Source: an uncultured archaeon
GTDB taxonomy: Archaea; Asgardarchaeota; Thorarchaeia; Thorarchaeales; Thorarchaeaceae
Length of the DNA: 64,000 bases
Assembly (NCBI GenBank): GCA_964473825.1
Contig: CAYYQL010000001.1
Location: 1 to 64,000 of the forward strand
Direction of reading: 5' to 3'
Made by a program: the position numbers and the translations under genes. Positions 114 through 54,902 of the stretch are shown piece by piece. Under the pieces are notes generated by a model. That model was not told the origin of the DNA and did no database searches. It worked only from the letters and a program-made list of their open reading frames with translations. Positions within the stretch are counted from its first letter, which is position 1; each line of letters starts with the position of its first letter.

Positions 114-746
114 GTGTTGTTAAGAACCAACCACAAGAACAATGCAGTAAATGGCATCTTGGATCAGGCCTCTGTCCTGATGAAGAAATCCAGATTCTCT
201 GAGGCTGTGGACACTCTTGAAGAGGGAGCGCTCATTGACCCAGACAACTATCATATCTGGGAGCGAATTGTTGTCTGCAATCTTGAACTGAAACGACCCA
301 AGAAGGCCTTAGAGGCGCTTGAGAACGTGGTTAGAATTAGACCTTGTTCTGAGAAGGCATGGGCTGAGAAAGGATATCTACACCTGCTTCTTAATGAGAG
401 TGATGAGGGAATTGACGCTCTTCAAGAGAGTCTTCGGATAAGACCCAAGCGGAGCAGGGATTGGGAGTTCCTCGCTATTGCCCTTATTGCCCATGAGCGA
501 TGGGAGGAAGCTAAACACTCGCTTGAACGTGCCCTGAGCCTCAATCCAAACTCGGCTGTAGCTTGGTTCAACCTCGCTGTTTGTTTCCTCATCGAGGAAT
601 CCTATAGTGAGGCCTTGCAGGCCGCAGAAACGGCTTTTGCCATTGACCCAGGTCTCCAACCCTTGGCTGACGAATGGATTGACCTGTTGCGTCAAGACGA
701 TCTTTTCGAGCTGGGCATTTCTGACGAGTATCCAGCTGCAGGCTAG
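114..746 (+). CDS. Tetratricopeptide repeat protein
   Basis: Repeated ~34-aa TPR-like units (AWAEKG, DWEFLA, AWFNLA ... A..L.P). Confidence 0.85.
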   Translation: MLLRTNHKNNAVNGILDQASVLMKKSRFSEAVDTLEEGALIDPDNYHIWERIVVCNLELKRPKKALEALENVVRIRPCSEKAWAEKGYLHLLLNESDEGIDALQESLRIRPKRSRDWEFLAIALIAHERWEEAKHSLERALSLNPNSAVAWFNLAVCFLIEESYSEALQAAETAFAIDPGLQPLADEWIDLLRQDDLFELGISDEYPAAG

Positions 747-758: not shown

Positions 759-2705
759 TTACTCCTCTTCAGTGTCCATTGTATCTACGTCTGATGACAC
801 ATGCTCTCTAGCTGGATCGATTCCTTCCAGCGCATTGAGTTCATTCTCAATGTTCCGAATCTCTTCCTTTAGACCATGTTGTTCTGCGGTTTCAAGCGCT
901 TGTTGCAGTGCGCCCTTCAGACGTTCCCTCTCCTGCTGCCGTTCCACAGAATCCTCGATTGAGAGCAATGTGCTCCTTCTCTTTGGCATGACTTTCAGAA
1001 GGCCGTTGACTGCCGCCATAGCCTCATCCCTATCAGTGATTTCTTCTTCTTCACCGTTCTCTGAAGCTTCAAGAATGCGAAATATCTGGTCTTCTATCTG
1101 TTTGTGTTCTTCTATCGCTTCTTCGAGAATGGCACGAACCTCTTCATCATCGTCATCCACTTCATCAAGCCGCTTTTCGAGCCTCTCCACGGCATTCTCA
1201 AGAAACGCCTTCCTTTGAGCAAGTGTGGTCCTCCGACGCTCCATCCAGCGCCATTCACTCATTATGCCATGAGTCAGCGCGACAACCTGCTGTACCTTGT
1301 CACGATATTGCTCAACTTTTTGCTTAGCGTCCCGAAGGTCTGACTCTAGGCTATCGGCAACATATGACAACTGGTAAGCAAGCATATCTCCAGCCTGCGC
1401 TTCTGCAAGCACACGGCTCTCTTTGACTGCAGATGCAGCCTCCCTCCAGAGCTTTTCGAGTTCCTTCTCCTCTATTTCTGTCCTACCTTTCAATTCTAGC
1501 TCATCTGATATCTGTTCAATGCGGGCATTGATATCCTGAAGCTCCACAATCTTGCTGCGGAGAAGCGCCCTTCCCAGCTTCGTGTTAAGCTCACGTGTGA
1601 GTTTCTCTTGTTCCTCAGGAACCTCTAGCAGTGCATGGCTATTGTCAATCAGTAGTTGAAGTGCTTTCTCGAATTGGGTCACAGCATTGTGATACTCTCC
1701 CTCTTTGAGCAAGGATTCACCCTTCTGTTTCAATTCAAGAACGCCTTCTAGAACGTCATATGGAGAAGTACTTAGTAAACTCGCACCAAACTCCATGCCA
1801 GCCTCAGAGTCAAGATCAAGAGGAACCTCACCAAGAGAGAAGTGCTCAACCAGAATTCCCTCATCAGTCGCGAGGTACATATATTCGCCATCAACACTGA
1901 GGAAGCTGATATCGCCATCTTCAATCTCTGTTGATCCAATCTCAGCCCCGCTTTTCAAGTCCCAGATGCCGATGGTTTTGGTGCCGATGACTGCAACAAG
2001 ATACTGGTTGTTATTCCACATATGCCTGACTGGTTCATTAATGCCAAGGCTTAGCGTCTTCACAAGGTGAAATTCAACTCGATCCCAGAGCTTTATCTCA
2101 CCTGAACCAAACCCTGCTATCAGGAATTCGTTGTTCCCAGAAATATCTGTGCATTTCTCTTTTCCCTCAAGCTCTGTTATTTCAGATGGGGCTTGGTCTG
2201 CGTTGTAGCTCCATACTCTGGGCCTATCCTTCTTCGAGCAAGTGCATATGATATCAGCGTTTGCCCACAGTGATGAGATGTCCGAGTTATGCAGCTGCCA
2301 CGAACTTGTTTCGTGTGTGTCTTTGCGAATCGAAACGAGCCGCCCCTCTTTGGCGCCAACGTAAAGATATTCTCCATGAATCATCGATGTGGCAGCTTGG
2401 TAACTCAGCTCGAACCATCCTATCATGCCCCAAGTATGCTTTTTCCATACATAGACTCGTTTCTCACATGTGGTGTAGATGTACTCATCATCGATATGAA
2501 GTCCAAAGGGTGCAGAACTTGTGTCACCTAGCGTGGCAACTAGATGCCAATTGGACTTGGCCCATACTCTGACCTTCATATCCTTACAAGCAGCATAGAC
2601 ATGTTCATCGTCATGCACAACCGATAAGACGTCGGTCTCGAGCAGCGTAATAGTCTCATGACGAAGAGGAACTGTCTCCGCTGAACCTCCAGTAGGGCTC
2701 GACAT
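759..2705 (-). CDS. WD40/beta-propeller protein with C-terminal helical (TPR/MIT-like) and coiled-coil region
   Basis: N-terminal ~290 aa of WD-like repeats (VRVW, VYVW, IKLWD, IGIWD), then GEYHNAVTQFEKALQL helix and long acidic/basic heptads. Confidence 0.8.
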   Translation of the reverse strand: MSSPTGGSAETVPLRHETITLLETDVLSVVHDDEHVYAACKDMKVRVWAKSNWHLVATLGDTSSAPFGLHIDDEYIYTTCEKRVYVWKKHTWGMIGWFELSYQAATSMIHGEYLYVGAKEGRLVSIRKDTHETSSWQLHNSDISSLWANADIICTCSKKDRPRVWSYNADQAPSEITELEGKEKCTDISGNNEFLIAGFGSGEIKLWDRVEFHLVKTLSLGINEPVRHMWNNNQYLVAVIGTKTIGIWDLKSGAEIGSTEIEDGDISFLSVDGEYMYLATDEGILVEHFSLGEVPLDLDSEAGMEFGASLLSTSPYDVLEGVLELKQKGESLLKEGEYHNAVTQFEKALQLLIDNSHALLEVPEEQEKLTRELNTKLGRALLRSKIVELQDINARIEQISDELELKGRTEIEEKELEKLWREAASAVKESRVLAEAQAGDMLAYQLSYVADSLESDLRDAKQKVEQYRDKVQQVVALTHGIMSEWRWMERRRTTLAQRKAFLENAVERLEKRLDEVDDDDEEVRAILEEAIEEHKQIEDQIFRILEASENGEEEEITDRDEAMAAVNGLLKVMPKRRSTLLSIEDSVERQQERERLKGALQQALETAEQHGLKEEIRNIENELNALEGIDPAREHVSSDVDTMDTEEE

Positions 2706-2902: not shown

Positions 2903-5590
2903 TTGGACTTGAATACTTGGCGACGCGAGCTAGACCGTGTTTCCGAAATGAAAGGTATGCTAGTGCTACTTAATCTCTCACTAGAAGAACAAGTAGACAG
3001 AAAGGTGAGGCATCTTTATGATGCCTTTGCAAAATTGTCGAAGACAGAAAGCGAGCTTGAAGACGCCGGATTCTTCTCAAAGAGGAAGGTCAAATCCAAA
3101 GTCGAGAATACCGAGGGCGACGTTGAAGAGGACTTCATGCGTCTCATTCGTGATTTCGCAGAGCTTTTCCGCAAGACACATCGGGAAGTCATGGGCATGG
3201 TCCCAACAATTCAGGAGATCAAGCCAGCAGATGCAAAAGCACTTTCAGCTGTCTCTGTTCCAGCGATAGGAGCTGGCGACTTCAAGGATGCAGCGCACTT
3301 GTACGAATTTGCAGATGCGTTCACGAAGAAGTACAGCAGCCTCCATCAGGAACTAGCTCGGGATGCAAAGGAACTCCTGGATGAAAACAAGAGAATTGTT
3401 GAAACCTACGAGAGGCATATCACTATAGACCGGAGTGAAGTTGCAACAACGGTCTCTATTGACGAAGTATCTCACCTGCCGATTCCCGAGATTCTATCTC
3501 TTATGAAGAAGCTCCAAGTAGAGAGGACATACCTTGACGGTCGCAAGGATGAAGTCTCACGAATGCTCAGCGTCTCTCTCATGTCTGATATCGAGTCCCT
3601 CCAGGCCTCGGTTGAAACTGCTACTAGACTGGGTCTGAGCCTTCCAATGGACTTTCCCCAGAAGCTTCGCGAATTAGCAAGAGATGCATCCAAAGCCACG
3701 ACGCTTACTACCCTACTGTCTTTGGAGAACCAACTCGATACTGCTAGGCTCCAAGTTGCCAACATGTTAAGGGACAGAATCATCAACATGAAGCATGAGG
3801 TGACTAGTAAGATAGTTGAAGGGGGCATCCCCACGTCTTCAGCAGTTATACCTCAAGCTCCCGTATTCTCAGTCGACAACGAGGACATTGCCTCCCTGCT
3901 CTCCTCCTATCAGAAGATGGTTGAATGGGAGGGGCAAGTCAAGATTGCTTTGAAGGACAAAGTTGAAGAAACCCTCGATGAGGTTGACAAGGCAGCTGAT
4001 GTTCCCGACGACACTGGAATAAAGGATCTATCAAGCGTACGCAAGTTTGTATCGAGTTCAAGGAAGGAGCTTGAGAAGGCCGACGTTGACGGCATGATCA
4101 AGATCTACCTCAAGGCCAAGAGCATACGCGATGATGCCAAGCAGGAGCTGGCCGACAAGATACGGAGCTACCTTGCTAGATTCAACGAGCTCGCAACATC
4201 TGCCGACAGGGTGCTAGATTATGCACAACTGAGTAAGAAAGCGCCCAAGGTTGAAGATCTCGAAGGGAGCATAGTCTATCTTATTGAGAGTCTCAACAAT
4301 CTCAGGAATGCGGTTGAAAGCGGTGTGGCAACTTTCAGAGATGCCTGCAAACAGGAGGTAAACGCTATCATCGAGGACCTCCAAACGATAAAACCGGAAT
4401 ATGCAGAAATCTTCATGCCGATAATCGTGAATCTAGAAGACGGTGCCACTACCCTGGACAAGAAAGATGATTTCGGTGCACTGAGGTCTGAGATGCGGAC
4501 AATCAAGGATTCAATTCTGGCAAAGGCAAGAGACTCATTGGAGAATCTCAGATACCGGCTACGTGTTAAGATTCGACTTGCCGCGGCAAAACTCATGGGA
4601 GCAGGTGTAACGATACCCCCAGATGTTCAAGAAGCAATCAGTGAACTGAACAACATTGGAGTCGCAGCGGATACTGTATTCAGCCTGCCGGCAATAGCTC
4701 GCAAGATGATTGAGATATACGAGCAAAAGATCAGTTCTGAAGTGATCGACCTGCTCATGGAAGAAGTCGATGACTTGGAGCAGTCATTTGAGAAGGCAGA
4801 GAGCATTGGAGTGGAGGTAACGAAGGAGCTTGATGCTCTCAGAAAAATCAAGTCGGAACCACCACGTGACCTTGAAGCCGCTGCCGAGGACTTTGACAGG
4901 CTTGCCAATCTCACAACATCCCAAGATCTTCACAAGAAGATCAGAAGCAGAGTGGATGAAGCATACAATCAGATCAAAGATGCAATTCATCTCTTCGAGG
5001 AAGAAGGCATGTCGGAGTTTGTGGCGCGCTTGAACACGTTGGTTGAGCAGGTACCAGTACAACTGGAAGCAGAATCTAAACATATCAACGAGGCACTAGA
5101 TGTCTGCCTGACATTGGCAAACGTGCAAGAGGAGATGCTCACAGTAATCAAGAGCATTGCTAACAAGGACTCGGAGATTTTTGAGTCTGAACTGCGTGAG
5201 AAGAGCGAGTACTATTCGACAATAGAACGTGTCTTTGAGAAACATCCGAAGGACTTCAGTGCGAAGATCTACCCGCTTGACCGTATGTATGAATTGGAAG
5301 CGAAGCTGAATGAGGCACTGGTTCTGGATGAAGCACTTGAACATTTTAAAGAGCTCAAGAAACTCCGCAAGGGATGGATTGACAAAGCAGAGAAGATGGA
5401 CGACTGGCACAAATCACTGAAAATGTTCATGGGCGGATTCAGTCCAGCTGAGAGCGCAGAGAAACGGGATGAATTCTTGGATGATGCTGTACGGAAAATC
5501 CGCGAGACCTACAGCAGAGAGGACATAAGCTCATACCTATCATGGGCAGTTCGAGTTATAGCGGACACAATGGTTCAGAAACGGGGATAA
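2903..5590 (+). CDS. Large all-helical/coiled-coil protein (~895 aa)
   Basis: Long ORF 2768-5590; likely TTG start at 2903 after GGAGGT at 2891-2896; heptad-rich with no recognisable catalytic motif. Confidence 0.75.
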   Translation: MDLNTWRRELDRVSEMKGMLVLLNLSLEEQVDRKVRHLYDAFAKLSKTESELEDAGFFSKRKVKSKVENTEGDVEEDFMRLIRDFAELFRKTHREVMGMVPTIQEIKPADAKALSAVSVPAIGAGDFKDAAHLYEFADAFTKKYSSLHQELARDAKELLDENKRIVETYERHITIDRSEVATTVSIDEVSHLPIPEILSLMKKLQVERTYLDGRKDEVSRMLSVSLMSDIESLQASVETATRLGLSLPMDFPQKLRELARDASKATTLTTLLSLENQLDTARLQVANMLRDRIINMKHEVTSKIVEGGIPTSSAVIPQAPVFSVDNEDIASLLSSYQKMVEWEGQVKIALKDKVEETLDEVDKAADVPDDTGIKDLSSVRKFVSSSRKELEKADVDGMIKIYLKAKSIRDDAKQELADKIRSYLARFNELATSADRVLDYAQLSKKAPKVEDLEGSIVYLIESLNNLRNAVESGVATFRDACKQEVNAIIEDLQTIKPEYAEIFMPIIVNLEDGATTLDKKDDFGALRSEMRTIKDSILAKARDSLENLRYRLRVKIRLAAAKLMGAGVTIPPDVQEAISELNNIGVAADTVFSLPAIARKMIEIYEQKISSEVIDLLMEEVDDLEQSFEKAESIGVEVTKELDALRKIKSEPPRDLEAAAEDFDRLANLTTSQDLHKKIRSRVDEAYNQIKDAIHLFEEEGMSEFVARLNTLVEQVPVQLEAESKHINEALDVCLTLANVQEEMLTVIKSIANKDSEIFESELREKSEYYSTIERVFEKHPKDFSAKIYPLDRMYELEAKLNEALVLDEALEHFKELKKLRKGWIDKAEKMDDWHKSLKMFMGGFSPAESAEKRDEFLDDAVRKIRETYSREDISSYLSWAVRVIADTMVQKRG

Positions 5591-5594
5591 TATC

Positions 5595-6980
5595 ATGTTT
5601 CGAGATAGTTCAAAGAAGAGTGAGGATGAGTCTACGAAAGCGGCCGAGGTATTCGCCATAGGTATTGGTGAGGCAGGCTCAAACATAGTCGGTTCATACC
5701 TCAAGGCGAGCCGAGACCGTAAGCTACCATCACGGGTCAGAGGATATCTTCTGATGAACACCGACAGAGCAGACCTTACTAAGGTCAGATCGAAATATGG
5801 CATTCCTAAGGAACACACCTTGCTCTATGGTTCATCGGAAATCGGAGTTGGTGGTCGTTTCATGGATGGGTATCAGGCTGTCATGGACTCGAAGGACATA
5901 ATCTTTGACCAACTCAGTAACCTCGGGTTTGAGGGTGTTTCTGGCTTCTGTATATTCACTAGCCTCGGGGGCGGAACTGGATGCGGCGGTACGCCGGCAG
6001 TGATTGAGCTCCTCAAGCAGCGATTCCAAGAGGAGGAAGGCCGCAGGATTTTCGTCTATGTGATCGGCATTCTTCCCTTTGAAGGACAATCAAGTGAAGC
6101 ACTCAACTCCATATGGGCGGTCTCCAAACTATTGCGTGCACAGCTACAGGAACGTGGGGCGGACCTAACCATTCTCCTGAGTAACAGGACAATGCTGAAA
6201 CGAATCCTCCAGTCACGAAGAGGCGACAGCGTTGATTATCTTGAGCGAGAGCTTAACGTCGACATAGCCAGTGTAGGCTCAATCGAAACAATGGTACCCT
6301 CAACTCTCGATGAGGCGACTGAGATCGAGGAGAGAACCGAACAAGCCTTTGTAGAGCTTGTCAATCCGCTTGCTCTTGATGTTGTTGAAGCAATGCTCTC
6401 ACCAGGCGTCTATGAGGCACATAAGGATGTATTCCCCACAACAGATCTCGCAGATTATGCGCGGAAGCTGGATCCAGTAGTCGTGCCTGCACTGTACACA
6501 GACGTAGGGCTGATTCCCGACGCCGGGAGCATGCCAAAACAGCTCCGAACCATGATCGAGTATGCCGTGAAGGAGTGTTCATATGCAGACGTCGGCGAGG
6601 AGCCTAATGCCGAGAGCGTCTACTACGTCTTCAGCGGACCGCGACATATCTCGAAGGCAGAATATGGTATGCATCTCAAAGAAGCTCTCGACCAGTTCAT
6701 TGCACCAGGAGCTGCCATCACCCCATGTTATGTTCAATATGAAACGAGGGACTACGCAACTAATCTCTTGTTGCTTCTCGGATTACCGAAGATTCCAGAG
6801 CTTGTTCAGCTTATCAAAGAAGCGACACAGCTCGTCAATCTCCATAGTGGCCCATCTCCGTTGAAACAGAGTTGGTTCATGAGATCTAAGGGGACATCAC
6901 GGAAAGAACTCGTCAGCGCTATCAACGACTTCCGAGAGTTGTTCAGCTATTACATGGAAGCGAGTACACCAACAGACTAG
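5595..6980 (+). CDS. Divergent tubulin/FtsZ-superfamily GTPase (CetZ/tubulin-like)
   Basis: IGIGEAGSNI (T1), NTD, GVGG, SLGGGTGCG signature (T4), ILPFEGQ...LNS, TDLAD (T7-like). Confidence 0.85.
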   Translation: MFRDSSKKSEDESTKAAEVFAIGIGEAGSNIVGSYLKASRDRKLPSRVRGYLLMNTDRADLTKVRSKYGIPKEHTLLYGSSEIGVGGRFMDGYQAVMDSKDIIFDQLSNLGFEGVSGFCIFTSLGGGTGCGGTPAVIELLKQRFQEEEGRRIFVYVIGILPFEGQSSEALNSIWAVSKLLRAQLQERGADLTILLSNRTMLKRILQSRRGDSVDYLERELNVDIASVGSIETMVPSTLDEATEIEERTEQAFVELVNPLALDVVEAMLSPGVYEAHKDVFPTTDLADYARKLDPVVVPALYTDVGLIPDAGSMPKQLRTMIEYAVKECSYADVGEEPNAESVYYVFSGPRHISKAEYGMHLKEALDQFIAPGAAITPCYVQYETRDYATNLLLLLGLPKIPELVQLIKEATQLVNLHSGPSPLKQSWFMRSKGTSRKELVSAINDFRELFSYYMEASTPTD

Positions 6981-8060
6981 ATGAAGGAGTTAATAGGTTT
7001 GACAGAAGAATTCCGAGTGGAGGACCTTATCGACAGGGTGCTTCTAGTTGAGACCCTTAACTCTACTCTGATTCACTTCCTGCTCAGTTCACAGGTGGAG
7101 GGATCAATAGATCCAGATCGTGTTGACTCCCTCACACAGGGACTCCTTCGCACCCGAAGATGGATTGAAGAGACCACGTCCACCAAAGGTATTCCTCAAT
7201 CTACCGCCAACATTCTCGGACTTATCGTCAAGAGGATGGCGCAGCTGGAGAGTTTGTTGCCCAAGCTCTCCCAGAAGGCCAAAGCTCTAGAAGTGGGCAA
7301 AGAAGCTCAGGAGATCCTCACGATACTTGAAGGAGGACCCAAAGCCACCGGAAAGGCTATTCCTTCTAAAGATGCGTCAGCGAAAGAACACGAGGGAATC
7401 GGCACTATGATACGTGCTGAATCAGGAACACCGCCAGAGCCTTACAAGAAGGTAGAAGTCGAAGACGACGAATGGGGGATGATTGGACAGACAAACCGAA
7501 TGATCAACCAGTATTCGAAGCGTTGTCATGTTCTCCTTCCCATGTTCTGGCTTGAAGTCATGAAGGAGATCCACAGGTACCGCTCTGAATCGCCTCACAT
7601 GTCTGACGCAATAGAGATTCCTAATCAGATACTTGTCAGGATTGTGAAAGGACTTCTCACTGAAGCCCCAGGAGCACGGCTGCTTCAAGATCTTGCTAAA
7701 CATCGCCCACCAGAGAAGTACTTGGATCCAGGCGAAAAAGAGAGGATTGAACGAGCTGTTGCGAAGTACTTCGCTGGTCTTGAGGGCATCCTCAAGGGTG
7801 AAGAACCCAACCCTGATGAGAAAATCAGTGAGGCGCAGACTGCGTTTGACGGATTCGGCTGGGGCGGCCCCGAACTGGAAAAGCGACTCATCAAGAGAAT
7901 AAACCAGAGATGCCAAGAGGCAATCCAGAGTGCCGAACAAGTAACCGATGCCCCCCGAAAGGTGATCTTCGCTGAGACCGCCAAGATGCTCTGCAAGCTC
8001 CAGCATGCGATTCTGGCCGAGCCGAGACTGCGGGAGATTCTCGCTCAGATGAAGCCTTAA
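6981..8060 (+). CDS. Hypothetical helical protein, third gene of the tubulin-like operon
   Basis: 359-aa ORF starting immediately after the GTPase stop codon. Confidence 0.7.
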   Translation: MKELIGLTEEFRVEDLIDRVLLVETLNSTLIHFLLSSQVEGSIDPDRVDSLTQGLLRTRRWIEETTSTKGIPQSTANILGLIVKRMAQLESLLPKLSQKAKALEVGKEAQEILTILEGGPKATGKAIPSKDASAKEHEGIGTMIRAESGTPPEPYKKVEVEDDEWGMIGQTNRMINQYSKRCHVLLPMFWLEVMKEIHRYRSESPHMSDAIEIPNQILVRIVKGLLTEAPGARLLQDLAKHRPPEKYLDPGEKERIERAVAKYFAGLEGILKGEEPNPDEKISEAQTAFDGFGWGGPELEKRLIKRINQRCQEAIQSAEQVTDAPRKVIFAETAKMLCKLQHAILAEPRLREILAQMKP

Positions 8061-8137
8061 TCCAAGTATGGAAGACAGAAGTCGTATTCCATATAAGGAG
8101 CAAATGTAATCTCTACTAAAGTTCACAGGGGATTACA

Positions 8138-9544
8138 GTGTTAGGTCTCGACATCATGCTCAACCCAAAAGTCGCCGCAGTTGTAGGTGTTTCAACGTCA
8201 AATCCGTTCAGCCCCGGCAATGTCATCTTCCGCAAGCTACGCTTTGAGAACGGATTGAAGACATTTCCCATCAATCCAAAGGGCGGAAAAGTCGAGGGAA
8301 TCAAGGTCTATCCCACTCTGACCGACTGTCCCAACGAAATCGACTTAGTGGTCATCTCTGTCCCGGCCAAGTACGTCCCATCAGTCTTGAAAGAGGTGGG
8401 CGAACTAGGCATTGAGGCGGCCATCGTTGTATCTGGCGGTTTCAGCGAAACGGGGAAGACTGGAGCAAACCTGCAAGAAGAAATCGTTGAGATCGCTGAA
8501 CAATACAACATCACCATGGTAGGGCCAAACTGTATCGGCGTCTTTGTCCCGGACAGAGTAGACACTTTCTTTCTGCCCTCGGAGAGAGTTGCACGGCCAC
8601 GACACGGCAATGTTGCCATCATCTCACAGAGCGGGGGATGGCTTGTGGAGAGACTGGAGGAGTTTGCCTCTCGTGACCTTGGCATTGCGGCTGCAGTGTC
8701 GATAGGCAATGCCGCCCAGACTGAAGTAACGGACTTTATCCGTCATTTCGGACGAGATGAACGCGTTCGAGTGATTCTTGCATACATCGAAGGATTCTCC
8801 AAAGGAGAAGGTCGAGAGTTTGTCAAAGCTTGTTCTGAGATAGCACCCAAGAAACCAGTCGTCGTGTTGAAGGGTGGTCAGTCAGAGTCGGGACACAGAG
8901 CCACACAGAGTCATACATCTTCGCTTGCAGGTGATTCAGAGGTGACATCAGCAGCCTTCAGACAATATGGCGTGATTGAGGCGGAAGATGAGGACCATGT
9001 GATGGCTTACTCCAAGGTCTTCTCATCTGAAGTGAAGCCCATGATGGGCAAGAGAGTGGGGGCTCTCACCGTCAGCGGCGGACACGGCGTTATTGCAACT
9101 GATGAGGCTGCATATCATGGTCTCGAGTTTCCGCTCTTCAAAGAAGAGGATCAAGAGAGAATGAGGCAGGCAATGACAGAAGCATACAGAGGGATATCAT
9201 CTTTCCAAAACCCATGCGATTTGACAGGAAGTGCATCAGACATTGACTACGAGCGCGTCCTTGACGTTATGCTTGAAATCGACTACATCGATGCAGCATT
9301 ACTGCTTCTCCTTCCATACGCACCCGGGATCTCGTTGCAGATTGGCGCAAGAGTGGCGAATGTGGCCAAGAAGTACAGAAAAACCGTCGTGGCATACGTA
9401 CCCAATCTGGAGAAGTACAACATCATAATTCGGGGCTTTGAGCTCAATGGCATTCCTGTCGGGGACACTATCGAAGAGGCAGTCCAGATGCTGGACGGTA
9501 TCTGGGAGAGGTCCAGATTTCTTCGCAGGATAGGCGAACTCTGA
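8138..9544 (+). CDS. acdA: Acyl-CoA synthetase (ADP-forming) alpha subunit
   Basis: CoA-binding N-terminus (VAAVVGVS, PINPKG), GPNCIG, ISQSGG, SHTSSLAG phospho-His, NPCDLTG. Confidence 0.9.
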   Translation: MLGLDIMLNPKVAAVVGVSTSNPFSPGNVIFRKLRFENGLKTFPINPKGGKVEGIKVYPTLTDCPNEIDLVVISVPAKYVPSVLKEVGELGIEAAIVVSGGFSETGKTGANLQEEIVEIAEQYNITMVGPNCIGVFVPDRVDTFFLPSERVARPRHGNVAIISQSGGWLVERLEEFASRDLGIAAAVSIGNAAQTEVTDFIRHFGRDERVRVILAYIEGFSKGEGREFVKACSEIAPKKPVVVLKGGQSESGHRATQSHTSSLAGDSEVTSAAFRQYGVIEAEDEDHVMAYSKVFSSEVKPMMGKRVGALTVSGGHGVIATDEAAYHGLEFPLFKEEDQERMRQAMTEAYRGISSFQNPCDLTGSASDIDYERVLDVMLEIDYIDAALLLLLPYAPGISLQIGARVANVAKKYRKTVVAYVPNLEKYNIIIRGFELNGIPVGDTIEEAVQMLDGIWERSRFLRRIGEL

Positions 9545-9667
9545 ACACGAGCATAATGCATTGATACCCTTCAATAGATTGCTGCATATACCTTACGCGG
9601 AGAGATGCAACGGAGATTCAAGTTTCACGGGCCAAAATCACAGAATGAGCCACAAGTGAACGGACAT

Positions 9668-10792
9668 CTAGAAACGAGTGAACTTCCGATAGTCAATATC
9701 CACAGACTCAAGTGCCTTTGCCAGCTCTGCGCTTAGCAGAAGGGGACGTTCAACCAAATCCTCAGTAATCTCACAGCCATTGAGGTACATGGCAACTCGA
9801 AGCCCCTCTGTCAACTTCTTGATCTCCTGTACCACGAGGTCAGTGCTTCCTTCTACTGCAGGTCTGAGGAATGGATGTGCCACTCCAGCAGCCACAGCTC
9901 CGAGACTCAACGCTTTTGCAACGTCAAGGCCAGAACGGACCCCTCCAGTAGCTATGATATCCAAATCAGTGGCCTCCCTGACCATTATGATGCTGAGGGC
10001 TGTAGGAATTCCCCAGTCCCAGAAGTCGAGTCCTAACTGCGCCTTGATAAGGTTGTTTTCACGGAGAGCACGATAGTATTCCACAGCTGCCCAACTCGTT
10101 CCACCAACACCGCCCACATCCACTCCGTCGACGTCGGCCTCCTCAAGTGCTAGAGCTACGTTTGACGATATTCCGGCACCTGTCTCCTTGACAATCACGG
10201 GGATGTCAACAGAGTCCACAATCAATGCGATATTTTCAAGGACTCCAATGGAATTGCAGTCACCCTCGGGTTGAACAGCCTCCTGTAGCGTATTAAGGTG
10301 AATCGCCAGGATGTCTGCCTCAATCATTTGAACGGCCTCAGGTGCGCTCTTTACATGGGTTGCCCCAATATTGGCAATCACTGGAACAGAGGGCGCACTC
10401 TCTCTCACAATCTTGAAGGTATTCACTAAGGTCGGGTCTTCGAGTGCAGACCTCTGACTGCCAACGCCTATGGGAATCCGCATTTCTTCGGCAGCCTCTG
10501 CAAGGCGCTTGTTGATTTCAAGTGTATCTGGATGGCCGCCTGTCATGCCGGCTATGACAAGAGGAGCATCCGCGCGCAGTCCAAAGAAATTCGTCGTGAG
10601 ATCAATATCGTTCTTGTCAATCTCAGGTAGTGCATTATGAATGAACTCGATGTGTTCAAACATTGTTGAGCGTCTGCATTGCACATCTTCCTGAAGACAT
10701 ATCTCGATGTGTTCAAGCTTCCTACGCCGGGTCCGCGCGGCTTCAGGCGATGACGAATCGTTTCTCACTTCGGACTTGCTTCCTCGCGACAT
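9668..10792 (-). CDS. fni: Type 2 isopentenyl-diphosphate delta-isomerase
   Basis: RKLEH, GMTGG, GVGSQR, HLNTLQE..QPEGD, VIVKETGAG, GGTSW motifs; start uncertain (ORF extends to 10825). Confidence 0.95.
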   Translation of the reverse strand: MSRGSKSEVRNDSSSPEAARTRRRKLEHIEICLQEDVQCRRSTMFEHIEFIHNALPEIDKNDIDLTTNFFGLRADAPLVIAGMTGGHPDTLEINKRLAEAAEEMRIPIGVGSQRSALEDPTLVNTFKIVRESAPSVPVIANIGATHVKSAPEAVQMIEADILAIHLNTLQEAVQPEGDCNSIGVLENIALIVDSVDIPVIVKETGAGISSNVALALEEADVDGVDVGGVGGTSWAAVEYYRALRENNLIKAQLGLDFWDWGIPTALSIIMVREATDLDIIATGGVRSGLDVAKALSLGAVAAGVAHPFLRPAVEGSTDLVVQEIKKLTEGLRVAMYLNGCEITEDLVERPLLLSAELAKALESVDIDYRKFTRF

Positions 10793-41973: not shown

Positions 41974-42126
41974 ATGACCGAAGATGAAAGAAACGAAGAA
42001 GAGATACTAGAGTCACAGAAGCTCTCATCCAAAGACAAACAAGAGATCCAAGAGGGTCTCTGTGTCAACTGTGCTGTGGTGATGTTCATCTTCATGATCA
42101 TAGCTCTCACTACATTTGTGCTGTGA
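41974..42126 (+). CDS. Small tail-anchored membrane protein (50 aa)
   Basis: MTEDERNEEEILESQK...CVNCAVVMFIFMIIALTTFVL; AGGAG upstream; not in the ORF track. Confidence 0.6.
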   Translation: MTEDERNEEEILESQKLSSKDKQEIQEGLCVNCAVVMFIFMIIALTTFVL

Positions 42127-42144
42127 CGTGGAAGTGACGACTAG

Positions 42145-42317
42145 GTGACTTTTCTTATAGACCCGCCCTTGCTGGTCACGTTCGGTTTCATCTCCTATGC
42201 GATTGGTGCTAGGCTACAGGATTGCACAGATCTTCCCATAGGTAAAATCCTGGCACTGTTCAGCACAGTCACAATAATCTTCACAAGCACTTCTCTGTAT
42301 CTGAACCTCTGGTACAT
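42145..42317 (+). pseudogene. 5' half of host membrane-protein gene interrupted by the integrated element
   Basis: ...SLYLNLWY ends in the att core; joins in frame to 58552-58743. Confidence 0.85.
42308..42317 (+). repeat. attL core TCTGGTACAT
   Basis: Identical to 58544-58553. Confidence 0.9.
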
Positions 42318-42377
42318 AGCAGACAATTCCCTCTCAATATGTAACGGATAATGCCCTTTAGAGATATCATTGCGATA

Positions 42378-42416
42378 TTTTGTGTAGATTCTACCCCCAC
42401 CCCCGTGATATATATC
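42378..42416. repeat. 39-bp sequence, inverted copy of 57056-57094
   Basis: TTTTGTGTAGATTCTACCCCCACCCCCGTGATATATATC versus reverse complement of 57056-57094: 34/39 ungapped identity. Confidence 0.85.
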
Positions 42417-42583
42417 TCACTGAGCTCTCCGGATACCTGGTCCCTCAACTCGTTGGTAAAAGCAGAGAGCATGTCTGAGATGTTCTTGAGGAGTGCTCGG
42501 CGAGGACTCCTATAGGGAGTGGTTCAGTCCAGAACGTGAGAGTCGCCCATGTCAGACTCTTCTGACTTGGAGGATGCCTTGAG

Positions 42584-42742
42584 ATGACTGATACGCGCAA
42601 CAAAATCGATATCACGGAGGAACTGAAGAACGCAGTTCTCGAACTGGTTGGCAGTTTTCTTCGTGAGGCCCGTTCCATGTGCTCTAGCGACGAGGAGTTC
42701 TATCGAGTGATCGACTGGCTGATCTCGCGCGATAAGAAGTGA
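42584..42742 (+). CDS. Small helical protein (52 aa), similar to 55229-55366
   Basis: MTDTRNKIDITEELKNAVLELVGSFLREARSMCSSDEEFYRVIDWLISRDKK; GGAGG upstream; stop codon abuts a repeat core. Confidence 0.6.
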   Translation: MTDTRNKIDITEELKNAVLELVGSFLREARSMCSSDEEFYRVIDWLISRDKK

Positions 42743-43228
42743 CTCGTTGGTAAGAAGAGAGGTCTCCTTGTCTGATGTTGCTGGGTAACTAGCGGCCAAC
42801 AGCTCGAGGGCTAGTTGCAGGGTAACGACTCGAGAATGCATCCCTCCGAGTTGGCGCCCGCCAACTCTCTGAGTCTTCTCTCTACGAGACTAAATAGTAC
42901 CGAGGACCTAGACCACTTGGACCACCTAGACCGGAGAGTACTCATGCTCAAGGAGATCTCATCTGAGACTGCCAGTTACCAACGAGTGAGAAGTCCGCCG
43001 TTTCTGAGCAGATAGGTATAGCTGAACCCATTTCACGGGGATAAAAATGCATGGGCCTCTCATTGGTAAGAATGCCCTTGAGAGCGTCTCTGAGACTCGG
43101 CCAATCATCAAGAGTCCTGTAGTCTGGTTCCTCACCCGGTAGCTGAGTCGTCTTCTGTGGTGCCGAGAGCGTGATTTGACCTCCTTAATAGTCCTGTAGA
43201 ATCACCTTTTGATAGGACTGTGCTGATT

Positions 43229-43510
43229 ATGACAGACAACGATGAGAGCCCGCTCCTGGTCAGGATCCCTGGACGAGATGAGGACCGGTCCGCCGCGAAG
43301 CATCCCCGGCCCCGATGTGGGATCTGTGGACGTCCAACAGTGGTCGCCACCATAGACCGGGGCAAGACCGAGAAGAAGGGGAAGAGGCCAGTGGGCCGAC
43401 CCAGGAAGGGCGCAAGATACACTCGCTACCGAAAGATCGGGAGGTACTGCGCCTATTGCGAGATCTTCTACTATCCCAACGGCACCCCTGACTACAGGTT
43501 GAGAGGCTAG
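43229..43510 (+). CDS. Small Zn-finger protein with AT-hook-like motif
   Basis: CGIC ... RPVGRPRKG ... CAYC. Confidence 0.6.
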   Translation: MTDNDESPLLVRIPGRDEDRSAAKHPRPRCGICGRPTVVATIDRGKTEKKGKRPVGRPRKGARYTRYRKIGRYCAYCEIFYYPNGTPDYRLRG

Positions 43511-43556
43511 AGAAGAATAGCTTCTCCAAGTTCACGGGGCACGGTCTCCTGTCCTG

Positions 43557-44153
43557 GTGAACCTTGGTCTCCCTCGAGCATCGAGGCCCACACGTATGGA
43601 TCAACACTCGTTGGTAACTGCTGAGCAGCTGAGGAAGTTGGCGCCCGCCAACTCGTTGGTAACTGTAGAGAACATATCCATCGTCCTGCCTTACTCATAC
43701 ACTATAGCTGAAGAGCAAGAAGACGGGCGACTTTTCACTCACCCTCTGATAACAGCCTCGAAACGGCCTCTCGCGCTTGTCTACGATTCGTCTGGGCAGA
43801 CTTGGTCCAGAGAAGAATTTGCCTTCCATACGATCTCTCCGCTGAAGATTCGGCATCGGAGGGTTGTGCGAGCTCCCCGAGGTTCCCAGAAGAAGGTCTC
43901 AGAACTCGTTGGTAACTGGACGTCAGGTGTCCTTCTCCCTGTAGGTCGCAATGAGATCCTCGAGTCGCTTTCTGATTGCCTCTTTGACGAACTCAGCAAA
44001 GGACGTGTAGCCGAGGCCGATCTCTTCATTCTTCTTCTCAACAAGATCCCTCAAGGACTCGGGAATGCGTACCGTGATGTATTCGTCAGACATGATTCAT
44101 CCGAGACCACCGCGAGAGATAATCCCTTCCTATCAATATTGAATCACCTATGA
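43557..44153 (+). CDS. Hypothetical protein (contains three repeat copies; 5' end doubtful)
   Basis: 198-aa ORF; N-terminus is made of repeat DNA. Confidence 0.35.
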   Translation: MNLGLPRASRPTRMDQHSLVTAEQLRKLAPANSLVTVENISIVLPYSYTIAEEQEDGRLFTHPLITASKRPLALVYDSSGQTWSREEFAFHTISPLKIRHRRVVRAPRGSQKKVSELVGNWTSGVLLPVGRNEILESLSDCLFDELSKGRVAEADLFILLLNKIPQGLGNAYRDVFVRHDSSETTARDNPFLSILNHL

Positions 44154-44170
44154 CGCAAAGGCTTAAGTAT
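44152..44170 (+). promoter_or_regulatory. Putative BRE/TATA promoter of the RHH-TFB operon
   Basis: GACGCAAAGG-CTTAAGTA about 25-30 bp upstream of ATG 44187/44193. Confidence 0.45.
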
Positions 44171-44192
44171 CACGGATGAATCATAGATGGCT

Positions 44193-44351
44193 ATGACTGA
44201 ATACAAGGGCGTCAAGATCCCGGCTGAACTGGCTGAGATCATTGACGTTAAACTGGTCAAGGAATCCGGCTACACTTCTCGAGCAGACTACATCAAGGAG
44301 TGCATCCGCAACGATCTCAGAAAGCGTGGGCTCCTGGGAGGGTCGGAGTGA
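44193..44351 (+). CDS. Ribbon-helix-helix (CopG-like) regulator, 52 aa
   Basis: MTEYKGVKIPAELAEIID...GYTSRADYIKECIRNDL; missed by the ORF track. Confidence 0.8.
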   Translation: MTEYKGVKIPAELAEIIDVKLVKESGYTSRADYIKECIRNDLRKRGLLGGSE

Positions 44352-44635
44352 TGCGTAGGGTCGACACCGACTACTTCTCCGTCGAGTACCCCGAGGACGT
44401 GACCTGCAGGCCCTTCGCGGTGCAGGAACCTCCGCTCCTCATGATGGTCTTTCGCAGAAGGGACGGACAGGAGATACACTTCGAGACCAAGCCCGGGGCC
44501 AGGGCCAAGACTATTCTCTTCGACAAGGACATCCTCATCATTGTTGTACGTCGCGACGCAGATACCCCCGATCTTGGCGACGGAGAGCAGGTCCCTGATA
44601 TCATCTCGAGAAGACTCTCAGGGGAGGGCAACTGA
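44351..44635 (+). CDS. Hypothetical protein
   Basis: TGATG coupling to upstream and downstream genes. Confidence 0.65.
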   Translation: MRRVDTDYFSVEYPEDVTCRPFAVQEPPLLMMVFRRRDGQEIHFETKPGARAKTILFDKDILIIVVRRDADTPDLGDGEQVPDIISRRLSGEGN

Positions 44636-44988
44636 TGGACTGCTATGAGTTTTCCTCGATTTCTCGGGTATCAGACACGACCGGCTTCCATCCGATCAAG
44701 AGCGGAAGGGACTATGCCTTCGAGCCAGACAGGGAGTTCGTGACCTTCTCCCAGGAGATCAACCTCGGTAACACTCCCCTGGAGAACTGCGCTGCACTCT
44801 TGGTGAGGACTCGGAGCCCTGCCGCTGATGTCGCGAGAAGCATCAAGAAGACTGAGACCGACAGGGAGCATGCCTGGGCCGATACCTCATTCTCGAGTGC
44901 TGTGGGCCTCATCCACGTGGTCTCCGACGTGGAGGTCTCACTCTCAGTGGTCCGACCCGACCTGCTCCTGGTCTTCCTGCAGAAGTGA
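44635..44988 (+). CDS. Hypothetical protein
   Basis: TGATG translational coupling, GGGAG upstream. Confidence 0.6.
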   Translation: MDCYEFSSISRVSDTTGFHPIKSGRDYAFEPDREFVTFSQEINLGNTPLENCAALLVRTRSPAADVARSIKKTETDREHAWADTSFSSAVGLIHVVSDVEVSLSVVRPDLLLVFLQK

Positions 44989-44997
44989 TCTAGGAGG

Positions 44998-45129
44998 ATG
45001 ATGAGTCTGCCAGATCCAACAAAGCAAGAGGTCCTTGCGTGGTATCGAAAGGTCGCTCGAGAAGAAGTCAAGAAGGTCCTCGGGGAGATCAGTCCCAAGC
45101 AGCGGAGAACCCTCCAGGAGGGGATGTAG
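44998..45129 (+). CDS. Small hypothetical protein (43 aa)
   Basis: MMSLPDPTKQEVLAWYRKVAREEVKKVLGEISPKQRRTLQEGM after AGGAGG. Confidence 0.55.
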   Translation: MMSLPDPTKQEVLAWYRKVAREEVKKVLGEISPKQRRTLQEGM

Positions 45130-45130
45130 T

Positions 45131-45472
45131 GTGGAGCGGCCTGATTCTATCTCTATTGCGAAGGGCCATGTTGCTCCTGCGAATAGCCTACAGAACAAGC
45201 AGCCACTCTGTCAATCCTGTGCCAAGCGACACTTCTGCAACCAGTTCGTCTGGCAAGTTGCTCCCATGACTACCTGTGAGATGCGGATAGCCTATAGCCT
45301 GTCCTCAGAGTTATGGCTTCTATGGCTCTACCATCTTGCTCCACTCTGCCATGAATGCGCTATCTACCTGGACTGCGAGGAAGAATGCTGCGAAGAGTAC
45401 CACGATCCCCCGGCGGTCTGGTATCTCATGCTTGCCTATTCGTGGCTTGAGAAGTACAAGGAGGAGAACTAG
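45131..45472 (+). CDS. Cys-rich protein with two PLCxxCA repeats
   Basis: PLCQSCAKRHFC and PLCHECAIYLDC; GTG start likely. Confidence 0.55.
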   Translation: MERPDSISIAKGHVAPANSLQNKQPLCQSCAKRHFCNQFVWQVAPMTTCEMRIAYSLSSELWLLWLYHLAPLCHECAIYLDCEEECCEEYHDPPAVWYLMLAYSWLEKYKEEN

Positions 45473-46444
45473 ATGCAGGTACTGGTCAGGAATCAACATC
45501 TCTGCACCGAGTGTGGAGCTCCCCTCATCTCCCACAATGGGGCTCTCGTCTGCAGAGAGTGTGGTCTCGAGCACAGACGCGAACTGGTCCCAGGGACATT
45601 CAAGATCGGGGAGTCCATTGACTACGGCGAGGACTACTCCGCAAGCAGGTCGACGTCCGTCAACGATGCAGATGTCCTCGTAGATGGTGATGGTCTCGGG
45701 ACTTATATCTCCAGCTCGGTGAGAATGAGCTCCAGTTACCAACGAGCCAAGATCTACCGACTGCAGCAGCTCAATCGTCGCATCGCCTTGAAGCACCTGG
45801 AGCAAGAACGCAAGGTCCTTGTCTGGCTGGGTCGCTACGCCTCTGAGCTCGGACTCTCAGGCCAGATAGTGAGAAGAGCCAAGCATCTCTGCAAGCAGGC
45901 AATGAGACGCCTTCAGCAGGTCGGCGACGAGTTCAACAACTGCAGTCTGAACCGGGTCATCCTGGGCTGCTCTTCAACGATCTTCGCAGCTCGAGAGGCA
46001 AGAGTCCCGATGGATCCCCAGGAGATCATTGACGTCTGGGCCCAGCGTCATCGGGTCACTCTCTGCAACGTCAGGAAGGGCCTGTACTGGATCCAGAAAC
46101 AGACAGGGATTCCGTTCTCCTTCTCGAGGCCGATCGATTATGTTGACAAGACGGTCTCCGAGCTCAGGGCCTGCAATGAACTGATGGAACGAATCAGTGA
46201 CAGGGGACTTGATCTAGAGCGACTGATGCAGAGGCTGCGGCAAGATCTCAGCATGATTCTCAGTGCTACTCCCTCGGTTGTCTATCAGGGACGAAAGCCC
46301 TCAACCCTGACCCCAGCCCTTGCGTACGTTCTGCTGAAACGGCAGTGTGTCGGGGTGAGCCAGAAGGTGGTCGCTAGGGCCTGCGGAATCAGCTACCTGA
46401 CAATGCGGTACGGCTCTAGCCTTTGGAGGGAATACCTGAGATGA
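45473..46444 (+). CDS. Divergent transcription initiation factor B (TFB/TFIIB) homolog
   Basis: N-terminal Zn ribbon CTECG...LVCRECGL, DGLGTYI linker, cyclin folds (ASELGL, IFAAREARVP, RPIDYV, QGRKPS, SQKVVARACGIS). Confidence 0.85.
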   Translation: MQVLVRNQHLCTECGAPLISHNGALVCRECGLEHRRELVPGTFKIGESIDYGEDYSASRSTSVNDADVLVDGDGLGTYISSSVRMSSSYQRAKIYRLQQLNRRIALKHLEQERKVLVWLGRYASELGLSGQIVRRAKHLCKQAMRRLQQVGDEFNNCSLNRVILGCSSTIFAAREARVPMDPQEIIDVWAQRHRVTLCNVRKGLYWIQKQTGIPFSFSRPIDYVDKTVSELRACNELMERISDRGLDLERLMQRLRQDLSMILSATPSVVYQGRKPSTLTPALAYVLLKRQCVGVSQKVVARACGISYLTMRYGSSLWREYLR

Positions 46445-46641
46445 CGATCAGGATCATCGGTCGGGAGCAGGTGGTCTGTGACTGCACCGGCAACACCTCT
46501 GAGACCTACCAGGACAGGCTTCTGGTGGGCATATCCCACAGCAGGGACAGCATTATCGTCCGGGTGTTCTGTCCCGAGTGCGACGCGACCCGTGATTTCA
46601 CCATCAGGAGTGGTCTGCACCTGGACTGGATGTCTCACTAG
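46441..46641 (+). CDS. Small Zn-binding protein
   Basis: CDC ... CPEC; ATGA overlap with TFB; stop TAG is part of a repeat copy. Confidence 0.6.
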   Translation: MTIRIIGREQVVCDCTGNTSETYQDRLLVGISHSRDSIIVRVFCPECDATRDFTIRSGLHLDWMSH

Positions 46642-46925
46642 TTACCAACGAGTTGAACCGACCAGGAGAGATTTCCTCCCTGGCGGGAATTCGCTCTATC
46701 GAGCGAGGTGATGAATGGGAACTGACGGACCTGGAGTACACTGTCATGCTCTCGGCCTCTCTCAGCTAGAACAGGCGGTTTCAGATCGCCCTCTCCTATT
46801 TCTTGAGATGGTGCTTAGCCAGAGGTCACGTCGACCAGCTTGACAAGTTGGCGCGCGCCAACTCGTTGGTAACTTGAAACAGCTGCAGAAGTTAGCGCGC
46901 CAAGTGTCAGAGGATAAAAGGGGGG

Positions 46926-47381
46926 CTAATCAGGTATTCTACTGGACGAAGACACATCAGATACATTCGTTGATGAAACAACATAGACGGGCTCTTGGAA
47001 CTGGTTAATGCGAGATGATCTGACAACCCTTGATACGATTAGTCTGACCTTCAGAATGTCTCCATTCTCCAGTCGATGTGTATTCCACACTTCCTTAACT
47101 GGCTCGAAATCAACCATTGTCCGAGTTTCTTCAATTCCTTCCTCTTCAGACAAGGCAAGTGATTTTGCTTCTTTGGATACTCTCACACTGGTGACATTGG
47201 TAGCAGCATAGGCAATAAGAGGTCCGCCCGATATCTTGAGCTGGTGGGTGTCGAAGACTTTGAATACGATGGGTCTGATTCTCATCCTCGAACCATCTAC
47301 TAAATCATATTCATTCCATCCTTCATGGATGGGTTCGAAATCAAGTTCTGTAGCTTCTTCGCTGAGTTTCCTTATCTCCAA
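46926..47381 (-). CDS. Hypothetical protein with internally duplicated ~70-aa domain
   Basis: DFEPIHEGWNEYDLVDGSRMRIRPIV / DFEPVKEVWNTHRLENGDILKVRLIV. Confidence 0.75.
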   Translation of the reverse strand: MEIRKLSEEATELDFEPIHEGWNEYDLVDGSRMRIRPIVFKVFDTHQLKISGGPLIAYAATNVTSVRVSKEAKSLALSEEEGIEETRTMVDFEPVKEVWNTHRLENGDILKVRLIVSRVVRSSRINQFQEPVYVVSSTNVSDVSSSSRIPD

Positions 47382-47383
47382 TG

Positions 47384-47947
47384 CTATCCTCTCATCTTGT
47401 TTGCCTTCACATCATAAATCTTGATTGGATGTGTGTCTGACCAGAATCCCTTGTCAAATGTGGCCAGATAGTCACATCCGAAGTAGCATGCAAGCGAAAT
47501 ATGGAATGCATCGTTTCCACCAATCCCCACCAGCTTCTGGTTCGAGCCTCTCATGGCGACACGGTAGTTGGAATTCCTTAGCTGGTCCAGACCAAGCTCT
47601 AGCACTGCCCATACAAGGGGAGCATTTCTTCCTAGAATTGACAGCTCAAACTGAGTACCTGAAACAAACTCAAGATTCTTTAGAGCCATGATCTTTCCGA
47701 CTCCTTGTACTACATCCTGCTCAATGACTCCATAGTTCGTGTAGTTCTTGCGGACACAAGCTTTCCGAATGACGCTAATCATCTCCATCAATGCCCAAGT
47801 TGAAACAATCCCTGTTGCTGTTCCTTGTGCTATCTGCTGAAAGAAAGCCTTAGTGGCTCGTCTATCTCTACTGCGTCCGTAGCCGCTGAGATAGTTTAGA
47901 AGGACCGATGTATCGATGTAACAGAAACCGGCGGGAATCGAAGACAT
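47384..47947 (-). CDS. PIN-domain (VapC-like) nuclease/toxin
   Basis: YIDTSVL, ME, NDAFHISLA, LATFDKGF acidic PIN residues. Confidence 0.85.
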   Translation of the reverse strand: MSSIPAGFCYIDTSVLLNYLSGYGRSRDRRATKAFFQQIAQGTATGIVSTWALMEMISVIRKACVRKNYTNYGVIEQDVVQGVGKIMALKNLEFVSGTQFELSILGRNAPLVWAVLELGLDQLRNSNYRVAMRGSNQKLVGIGGNDAFHISLACYFGCDYLATFDKGFWSDTHPIKIYDVKANKMRG

Positions 47948-47960
47948 CCTTTCTCCCTCT

Positions 47961-48359
47961 CTACTTGAGTCTGACCTCTCTCAGCAGGTCCTCGACAGTC
48001 TTATCTTCCTCTCCATCGAATAGATGGGCAAGTGAGCCAAACCCATCTTCAATTGATTCAAAGCATGGATGAGGTAAGGGTCTATCCCCGGCTATAATCC
48101 TCCAGATGCGTTGTCTGCTGTGCTCGGCAACACGCCGTCCCTCTACGGACGTAGTTAGTGAATATGTAGGAACTATGGACACCTGTAGTTGAAGCATGGA
48201 GAAATGTTGTCTTGAATCGGTAGAGCACTCGACAGGATTCTGGGTTTCTTCAGGAGCAACTCGGACTAGAACGCAGTCCATCAGGTTCTCCGACGTTTCC
48301 GGGGATATCTGAAGAATGGATTCATTTTGTTCTTTTGAAACCAGCACTGGACCCACCAC
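47961..48359 (-). CDS. Putative antitoxin (VapB-like C-terminus)
   Basis: Upstream of PIN gene; C-terminal GSL...TVEDLLREVR typical of VapB tails. Confidence 0.5.
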   Translation of the reverse strand: MVGPVLVSKEQNESILQISPETSENLMDCVLVRVAPEETQNPVECSTDSRQHFSMLQLQVSIVPTYSLTTSVEGRRVAEHSRQRIWRIIAGDRPLPHPCFESIEDGFGSLAHLFDGEEDKTVEDLLREVRLK

Positions 48360-49773: not shown

Positions 49774-49814
49774 TAGACGATTAACTATGAAGAATCTCAA
49801 GGAGACGATAGACG

Positions 49815-50102: not shown

Positions 50103-50104
50103 CT

Positions 50105-54899: not shown

Positions 54900-54902
54900 T
54901 CT

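Follow-up and report, generated by a model that had tools for sequence, protein, structure and literature searches.

In their 2023 survey, Santana-Molina, del Saz-Navarro and Devos (Front Microbiol 13:1100249; PMC9871819) gave the name Asg.Tub to a clade of four sequences, from two Thorarchaeales metagenome-assembled genomes, from Heimdallarchaeia LC-3 and from B3-JM-08. These sequences were described as CetZ-like with a position that is unstable between CetZ and the tubulins, and the genes around them as unknown coiled-coil. A 2026 preprint on Asgard tubulins apparently uses the Asg.Tub clade only as an outgroup, and we found no functional or bench study of Asg.Tub in the literature. Here we describe a member of this family in a 64,000-nucleotide stretch of DNA from an uncultured archaeon of the Thorarchaeales (GenBank assembly GCA_964473825.1, contig CAYYQL010000001.1, positions 1 to 64,000; referred to below as the window). 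The GTPase gene is the second of three in an operon at 2903–8060 on the plus strand, and lies between genes for two orphan proteins that we call partner A and partner B. We consider it reasonably probable that the trio forms one chromosomal, Asgard-specific and GTP-driven filament system, in which the two partners are dedicated accessory proteins.

The three genes are tightly coupled, as a sequence-only reading of the window had proposed from gaps of 4 bp and 0 bp, and both junctions can be read in the sequence. The TAA of partner A (5588–5590) is followed by a 4-base gap and the ATG of the GTPase gene at 5595, and the TAG of the GTPase gene (6978–6980) abuts the ATG of partner B at 6981 with no base between them. 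The GTPase (5595–6980, plus strand) has 461 amino acids (aa) and is assigned to the Asg.Tub family of the tubulin/FtsZ superfamily by a PF00091 match, a fold model and a tree. Partner A (2903–5590, plus strand) is an acidic, all-helical-looking orphan of 895 aa, and partner B (6981–8060, plus strand) is an orphan of 359 aa. The longest frame for partner A begins at a GTG at 2768; we favor the TTG at 2903 as the likely start because a Shine-Dalgarno-like AGGAGGT, read directly at 2890–2896 on the plus strand, ends 6 bases 5' of it, and because the resulting length of 895 aa agrees with that of most Thorarchaeota homologs (895–897 aa).

The GTPase matches PF00091 at residues 18–202 with 68.8 bits (cut-off 33; E 9.6e-19). 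Its near-full-length relatives, 43–97% identical, are in Asgard archaea only, and the next matches have E values of 6e-28 or weaker. The GTPase of the window shares 87% identity with that of the AB_25 locus (L038) and 51% with a more distant relative, P0117, which falls inside the same clade; this clade has a support of 99 in the Shimodaira-Hasegawa-like approximate likelihood ratio test (SH-aLRT). The Asg.Tub fragments printed in the supplement of the 2023 survey carry the same motifs as this family, and at their beginnings the LC-3 sequence and P0117 match. On the strength of that match and of the shared motifs, we identify the GTPase, at the level of sequence, as an Asg.Tub ortholog.

We placed the family in a tree of 98 sequences, built by a quick search with SH-aLRT support only and without eukaryotic tubulins, which contains 12 family members, the two FtsZs of the host genome, six Asgard tubulins with PF03953 and the 78 nearest representatives. 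The family is recovered as one clade (SH-aLRT 99, stem 0.89), with a small group as its sister (support 90). It lies outside the clade of Asgard tubulins (SH-aLRT 100, stem 2.02) and also outside a clade of 33 sequences (SH-aLRT 95) that we take as CetZ because its anchor, P0140, matches CetZ1 at E 3e-84 in a PDB search. Deeper in the tree the family, the Asgard tubulins and two other groups meet at a single fork in which their order is not resolved. For a non-canonical group of 17 sequences, no relative with a solved structure was found at E≤1e-10. When a profile of the family was compared with solved structures, CetZ1 was the best match (49 bits), other CetZs came next and tubulins scored about 28 bits, with no FtsZ among the 60 best.

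Comparison with the established families gives a consistent picture. Against the FtsZ equivalog TIGR00065 the GTPase scores 35.8 bits where the cut-off is 295.2, and the host genome has two FtsZ genes apart from the Asg.Tub gene. PF03953 (Tubulin_C) has no match in the GTPase or elsewhere in the host genome, and the same search matches eight other Asgard genomes. The GTPase is therefore distinct both from canonical FtsZ and from bona fide tubulin, as the sequence-only reading had suggested, and its position outside the clade holding the CetZ1-like anchor sets it apart from canonical CetZ as well. It does not group inside a characterized clade, and its neighbors are syntenic in other genomes, so that on both counts the earlier proposal of a distinct module stands. 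The description of the module as uncharacterized is apt as regards function and does not hold as regards the GTPase clade, which already had the name Asg.Tub.

The motifs that had been picked out beforehand are present in the translation at residues 25–31 (GEAGSNI), 125–131 (GGGTGCG) and 283–287 (TDLAD), and we scored their conservation in an alignment of 15 family members from distant lineages. In T1, residues G25, E26, G28 and N30 are invariant; the family consensus is GECGSN, and the alanine of GEAGSNI is a local variant. In T4 a cysteine replaces Ser/Thr, and G125–G127, G129, C130 and G131 are invariant and T128 nearly so. In T7 (TTDLAD, 282–287), T283, D284 and D287 are invariant, and the protein is highly conserved in the family from one end to the other.

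These patterns bear on whether the GTPase polymerizes. In FtsZ- and tubulin-type polymers both acidic residues of T7 act on the neighboring subunit. An alternative to a filament is a non-polymerizing complex: the GTPase would form a fixed heterotrimer with the two partners, and its tubulin fold would work there as an assembly factor or switch. Such a complex would suit the co-encoding of both partners with the GTPase throughout, and the N-terminal bundle of partner B resembles the tubulin-binding cofactor Rbl2p with a Z score of 8.3, which is below the meaningful level for helical bundles. However, the T7 acidic pair and the nucleotide loops are invariant across the family, and conservation of the GTPase over its whole length fits polymer contacts on several faces; we consider a non-polymerizing complex quite unlikely.

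An AlphaFold model of the GTPase has a predicted local distance difference test (pLDDT) score of 81.7 and a predicted template modeling (pTM) score of 0.83, and shows a two-domain tubulin/FtsZ fold with the core helix H7. Fold comparison of the model (VIA) gives Z scores of 34–36 to tubulins and CetZ with 323–367 residues aligned, and OdinTubulin (Z 35.7, 366 aligned) is nearly tied with CetZ2 (Z 35.2, 327 aligned). The C-terminal helices of the model span residues 401–416, 422–432 and 436–454, after which a 7-residue tail remains; the model is thus folded to residue 454 of 461, in agreement with the earlier remark that an FtsZ-type tail is lacking. Alignments with tubulins extend to about residue 459 of the model, whereas those with CetZ end at 415–425, and the last helix thus has a counterpart in tubulins and none in the CetZ structures. 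Judged from the model, the final helices are H11/H12-like, with the last one H12-like, and this last feature is new relative to the 2023 Asg.Tub paper.

The model also contains a region of low pLDDT at about residues 205–250 (6207–6344, plus strand), between helices 197–207 and 242–268, with a net charge of -8. This H6–H7 insertion is specific to the family and present in all 15 aligned members, with lengths of 37–55 aa and charges from -9 to +2. It is acidic only in Thorarchaeota-type sequences, and the acidity is lost in the LC-3 type. The acidic insertion of about 50 aa that had been reported from the window sequence is therefore real and family-wide, although its acidity is a property of the Thorarchaeota-type sequences.

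We scanned 85 related loci for partners beside the GTPase, with the test limited to loci with enough flank. In every such locus a partner A homolog lies upstream and a partner B homolog downstream, with gene order and strand conserved, far beyond what chance would give; exceptions in the partner A match are L021, where it is partial or truncated, and L060, where it is displaced. Open reading frame (ORF) clustering of 16 loci from distinct lineages shows that only the trio is common to all, and that the outer neighbors vary. Pairwise comparisons covered loci of three assemblies, one from Heimdallarchaeota, one from Asgardarchaeia and a third; further loci came from records with Hermod-, Sif- and Borrarchaeota in their titles. 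Identities to the GTPase, partner A and partner B of the window were about 75, 42 and 44 percent, 63, 28 and 27 percent, 59, 29 and 27 percent, and 55, 21 and 25 percent, and they drop in the same order for all three proteins, indicating co-divergence. Across Asgard classes the GTPase retains 50–63% identity, compared with 21–30% for the partners, and the most divergent member (43% GTPase identity) retains the full trio. That the partners are dedicated to the GTPase, as first proposed from this one locus, agrees with their synteny across Asgard classes although the outer flanks change.

The GTPase gene is present in 124 of 400 Asgard genomes, and is near-universal in several families (74/85, 20/22, 15/19, 5/5 and 4/4). 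The module lies on the chromosome, is inherited vertically and is present mostly as a single copy. In one Asgard family, however, several genomes hold a second, diverged GTPase copy of about 50–53% identity; two such copies, L104 (in G067) and L105 (in G072), have a 1141-aa A-like gene upstream and no adjacent B-like gene. At two loci the module looks interrupted: in L021, which is in a record titled as a chromosome, partner A is reduced to its C-terminal part (7100–7963, an ORF of 287 aa), and in L061 (2286–3357) partner B is split into two ORFs. Both are possibly degraded copies. We also considered the nearest outgroup, P0128 (L101:8001–9374, on a metagenome contig), which is 33% identical in the N-terminal domain, and rejected it as a module member: it lacks partner A, and the overlapping 262-aa gene downstream (9361–10149) is a weak match to partner B, with a probability of 23%.

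True tubulins with Tubulin_C occur in 8 of the 400 Asgard genomes (G047, G138 and G298–G304; loci L089–L100), and none is in any family carrying the Asg.Tub module. This complementary pattern is suggestive only, as an overlap of about 2.5 genomes would be expected by chance and the genomes with true tubulins are too few and phylogenetically clustered, with relatedness uncontrolled.

Partner A has no relative in Pfam, NCBIfam or the PDB, and the ESM Atlas gives only its own cluster. For both partners, Pfam and NCBIfam searches gave nothing above noise, with matches that were inconsistent between members, and profile searches against PDB sequences gave only designed or generic helical bundles. 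Partner A is poor in Pro and Gly and rich in E, K, L and A, with an isoelectric point (pI) of 5.0 and no transmembrane segment. When the profile of its family is aligned to itself, matches appear at shifts of 138–151, 272, 392–419 and 540–544 residues. Such spacing is consistent with a repeat unit of about 136 residues, and we regard this internal repeat as probable from the sequence pattern, noting that a helical compositional bias could inflate self-alignment scores. Orthologs in the deepest member (1023 aa) and in the locus of the Heimdallarchaeota assembly (1169 aa) are longer than the 895 aa seen here, by amounts that roughly fit the addition of one or two repeat units. The 1169-aa ortholog gives two alignments, 258 residues apart, with a single stretch of the Thorarchaeota partner A, which implies an extra stretch of two units. 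The label of coiled-coil given to partner A by the sequence-only reading goes further than these data, which consist of the Pro/Gly-poor composition, the periodicity of about 136 residues and the absence of a Pfam family. Two homologs, P0350 and P0377, are labeled as tryptophanyl-tRNA synthetase in one source, an apparent mis-annotation, as partner A and 14 other homologs have no synthetase match in Pfam, NCBIfam or the PDB. We compared partners A and B with each other and rejected a relationship between them.

Partner B is modeled with a pLDDT of 82.9 overall and above 90 in its C-terminal domain. It consists of an N-terminal three-helix bundle (residues 13–116), a disordered and poorly conserved linker (118–150), and a confidently modeled helical domain (about 160–359) that holds most of the invariant residues. 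It has no Pfam or NCBIfam family and no usable match in the ESM Atlas, and Foldseek with the model gave no PDB match at E≤0.001. In a wide VIA search the matches cover the N-terminal bundle only, with Z of about 10, and comprise spectrin repeats, Mrs2/CorA, Not5 and designed bundles. We rejected any assignment of function from these bundle matches, including that to Rbl2p/cofactor A, since scores of this level are unspecific for helical bundles. The pI of partner B is 6.1, and that of its C-terminal domain 7.1; all three operon proteins are acidic to neutral.

A three-component operon around a divergent tubulin-like GTPase recalls type III plasmid partition, and the sequence-only reading had offered segregation as an option. 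A DNA segregation system of the TubZRC type would use the GTPase as motor, partner B as a DNA-binding adaptor and a nearby DNA centromere. Neither end of the operon carries an array of direct repeats or iterons, and partner B is neither basic nor a match to any Pfam family, the DNA-binding ones included. The locus is chromosomal and vertically inherited; we found no phage relatives, and among plasmids only one weak partial match, on a haloarchaeal megaplasmid. TubZ is absent among the sequence and fold neighbors listed for the GTPase. With no iterons, no basic or recognizable DNA-binding partner, and a chromosomal locus without close mobile-element relatives, we regard partition as very unlikely, and the segregation option finds no support here.

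A different alternative is a membrane-remodeling or trafficking system, in which a filament would act through partners A and B to shape membranes or protrusions, with small GTPases (Arf, Ras or Rag type) controlling it. Genes for small GTPases adjoin the module or lie near it in three contexts, all outside Thorarchaeota. An Arf-like gene is located three genes upstream of the module in L001 (102–1037), a Ras/Roc-like gene directly upstream in L003 (4532–5113), and a 740-aa RagA/Gtr1-like gene is convergent to the paralogous copy in L105 (7379–9601). Divergent tubulin-superfamily proteins have been tied to membrane systems in the literature (PMC10936438). However, none of the three operon proteins has a transmembrane segment (highest 19-residue Kyte-Doolittle mean ≤1.35), and no small GTPase is adjacent in the Thorarchaeota loci, in the loci with 62–63% identity (some of them in records titled Hermodarchaeota) or in the Borrarchaeota-type loci. 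Asgard genomes are rich in small GTPases, and the three adjacencies may be due to chance or may reflect a regulatory link. We keep a membrane or trafficking link, for which these adjacencies are the whole of the case, as a live alternative, albeit an unlikely one.

In the window itself, a hairpin with a 10-nucleotide stem and a 7-nucleotide loop (8067–8093, plus strand) starts 6 bases 3' of the partner B stop and possibly marks the end of the transcription unit; no T-run follows it. A gene resembling the alpha subunit of ADP-forming acetate-CoA ligase (8138–9544) begins 77 bases downstream of the operon. As only the Thorarchaeota- and Borrarchaeota-type loci share it, we do not count it as part of the module. 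Upstream are a TPR protein gene (114–746, plus strand) and a gene for a 648-aa WD40 beta-propeller (759–2705, minus strand) that points away from the operon in divergent orientation. The two are kept next to the module within Thorarchaeota only and were likewise not included. No tRNA or Rfam family was found in the window. The segment at 42001–58000 has a G+C content of 0.50–0.55, compared with 0.45–0.51 elsewhere in the window.

Taking the trio as a filament system with two accessory proteins, we propose the following mechanism. The GTPase would bind GTP and polymerize head-to-tail into protofilaments, in which the T7 loop of each subunit would complete the GTPase site of the next. Conservation of the nucleotide loops and of the T7 acidic pair, the strong constraint on the sequence, and the fact that one gene is present where an A/B pair would otherwise be expected of a heterodimer suggest a self-activating homopolymer like that of FtsZ or CetZ, with no obligate heterodimer. 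The constraint on the GTPase (50–63% identity when the partners are at 21–30%) is of a kind typical of polymer-forming proteins. The tight coupling of the genes and the co-divergence of their products point to partners A and B as physical partners of the GTPase. Partner A could be a modular helical-repeat protein that attaches along filaments or links them to one another, serving as a scaffold, bundler or ruler. Its length would differ from lineage to lineage by one or two repeat units, and the repeat would suit a lateral scaffold or ruler. The two-domain build of partner B with its flexible linker would suit an adaptor or regulator, which might act in nucleation, capping or tethering. The likeliest docking sites would be the outer H11/H12 surface and the H6–H7 insertion.

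We infer a cytoskeletal nature from family membership and the conserved catalytic motifs. The role would more probably be in cell shape or internal organization than in division or plasmid partition, given that the host keeps two ordinary FtsZ genes and that the module is chromosomal, mostly present once per genome and passed on vertically. The two FtsZ genes are what makes division less likely.

Several observations weigh against this interpretation. The module is missing from the largest sampled Asgard family (0/135) and from others, and so does not represent a core Asgard function. The second copies without an adjacent partner B indicate that partner B is not always needed in cis. GTP binding, polymerization and partner binding are all steps that we infer, and since the partners have no recognizable fold or family beyond generic helical bundles, the roles that we give them are guesses.

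The GTPase family had already been named, and we found no published description of a fixed trio with two orphan partners. Earlier work centered on the rare true tubulins (8/400), and Asg.Tub is far commoner (124/400) and very strongly conserved; the module is present across many lineages of the Asgard archaea, the nearest archaeal relatives of eukaryotes. If it does form filaments that recruit partners through tubulin-like outer helices, it would offer a simple and testable model for the co-evolution of filaments and the proteins that bind them, and would add a new cytoskeletal system in lineages with few known ones. Each of the three proteins is soluble and ordinary in size, which makes the key experiments straightforward. 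In a further extension, which we put forward tentatively and think rather unlikely as it stands, the module would join FtsZ/CetZ and the microtubule-type tubulins of Asgard archaea as a third tubulin-superfamily cytoskeleton in archaea. It would be a homopolymer whose tubulin-like H11/H12 face is read by dedicated proteins. As such it would parallel the arrangement of tubulin with microtubule-associated proteins, as its counterpart in archaea or even as its sister lineage, and one that is present in Heimdall-type lineages close to eukaryotes.

How the module compares with described systems differs from case to case. Like type III TubZRC, it combines a divergent tubulin-like GTPase with small dedicated partners encoded beside it; unlike TubZRC, it is chromosomal rather than plasmid- or phage-borne, and has neither centromere repeats nor a recognizable DNA-binding adaptor. 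Haloferax volcanii CetZ1 and CetZ2 (PDB 4b46 and 4b45; Duggin et al. 2015) are the best sequence matches among solved structures, and resemble this family in being archaeal, non-division members of the tubulin superfamily that coexist with FtsZ1 and FtsZ2. The Asg.Tub family differs from CetZ in its extra H6–H7 insertion, its further C-terminal helix and its own fixed partners; the gene contexts of CetZ and of the CetZ-like groups are unrelated to each other (PMC9871819).

With the true tubulins (OdinTubulin, 7evb; AtubA/B, 9f6t; BtubA/B, 5o09) the fold scores tie with those to CetZ and the alignment continues through the C-terminal helices. The T1 of the family is tubulin-like (GECGSN compared with GQxGNQ), as is its T4 (GGGTGxG), and BtubAB is also co-encoded with a helical accessory protein, BtubC (PMC9871819). 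On the other hand, identity to true tubulins is 14–19%, PF03953 is absent, a single gene takes the place of an A/B pair, and the T7 has two Asp, as in the FtsZ type; moreover, in the 400-genome sample the two occur in different Asgard families. The closest system is Asg.Tub itself, which is the same protein family, and both analyses place it unstably between CetZ and the tubulins. The 2023 paper dealt with four sequences and contains no statement on function, structure or a fixed trio; the present analysis extends the family to 124 of 400 genomes and sets its GTPase within a conserved trio.

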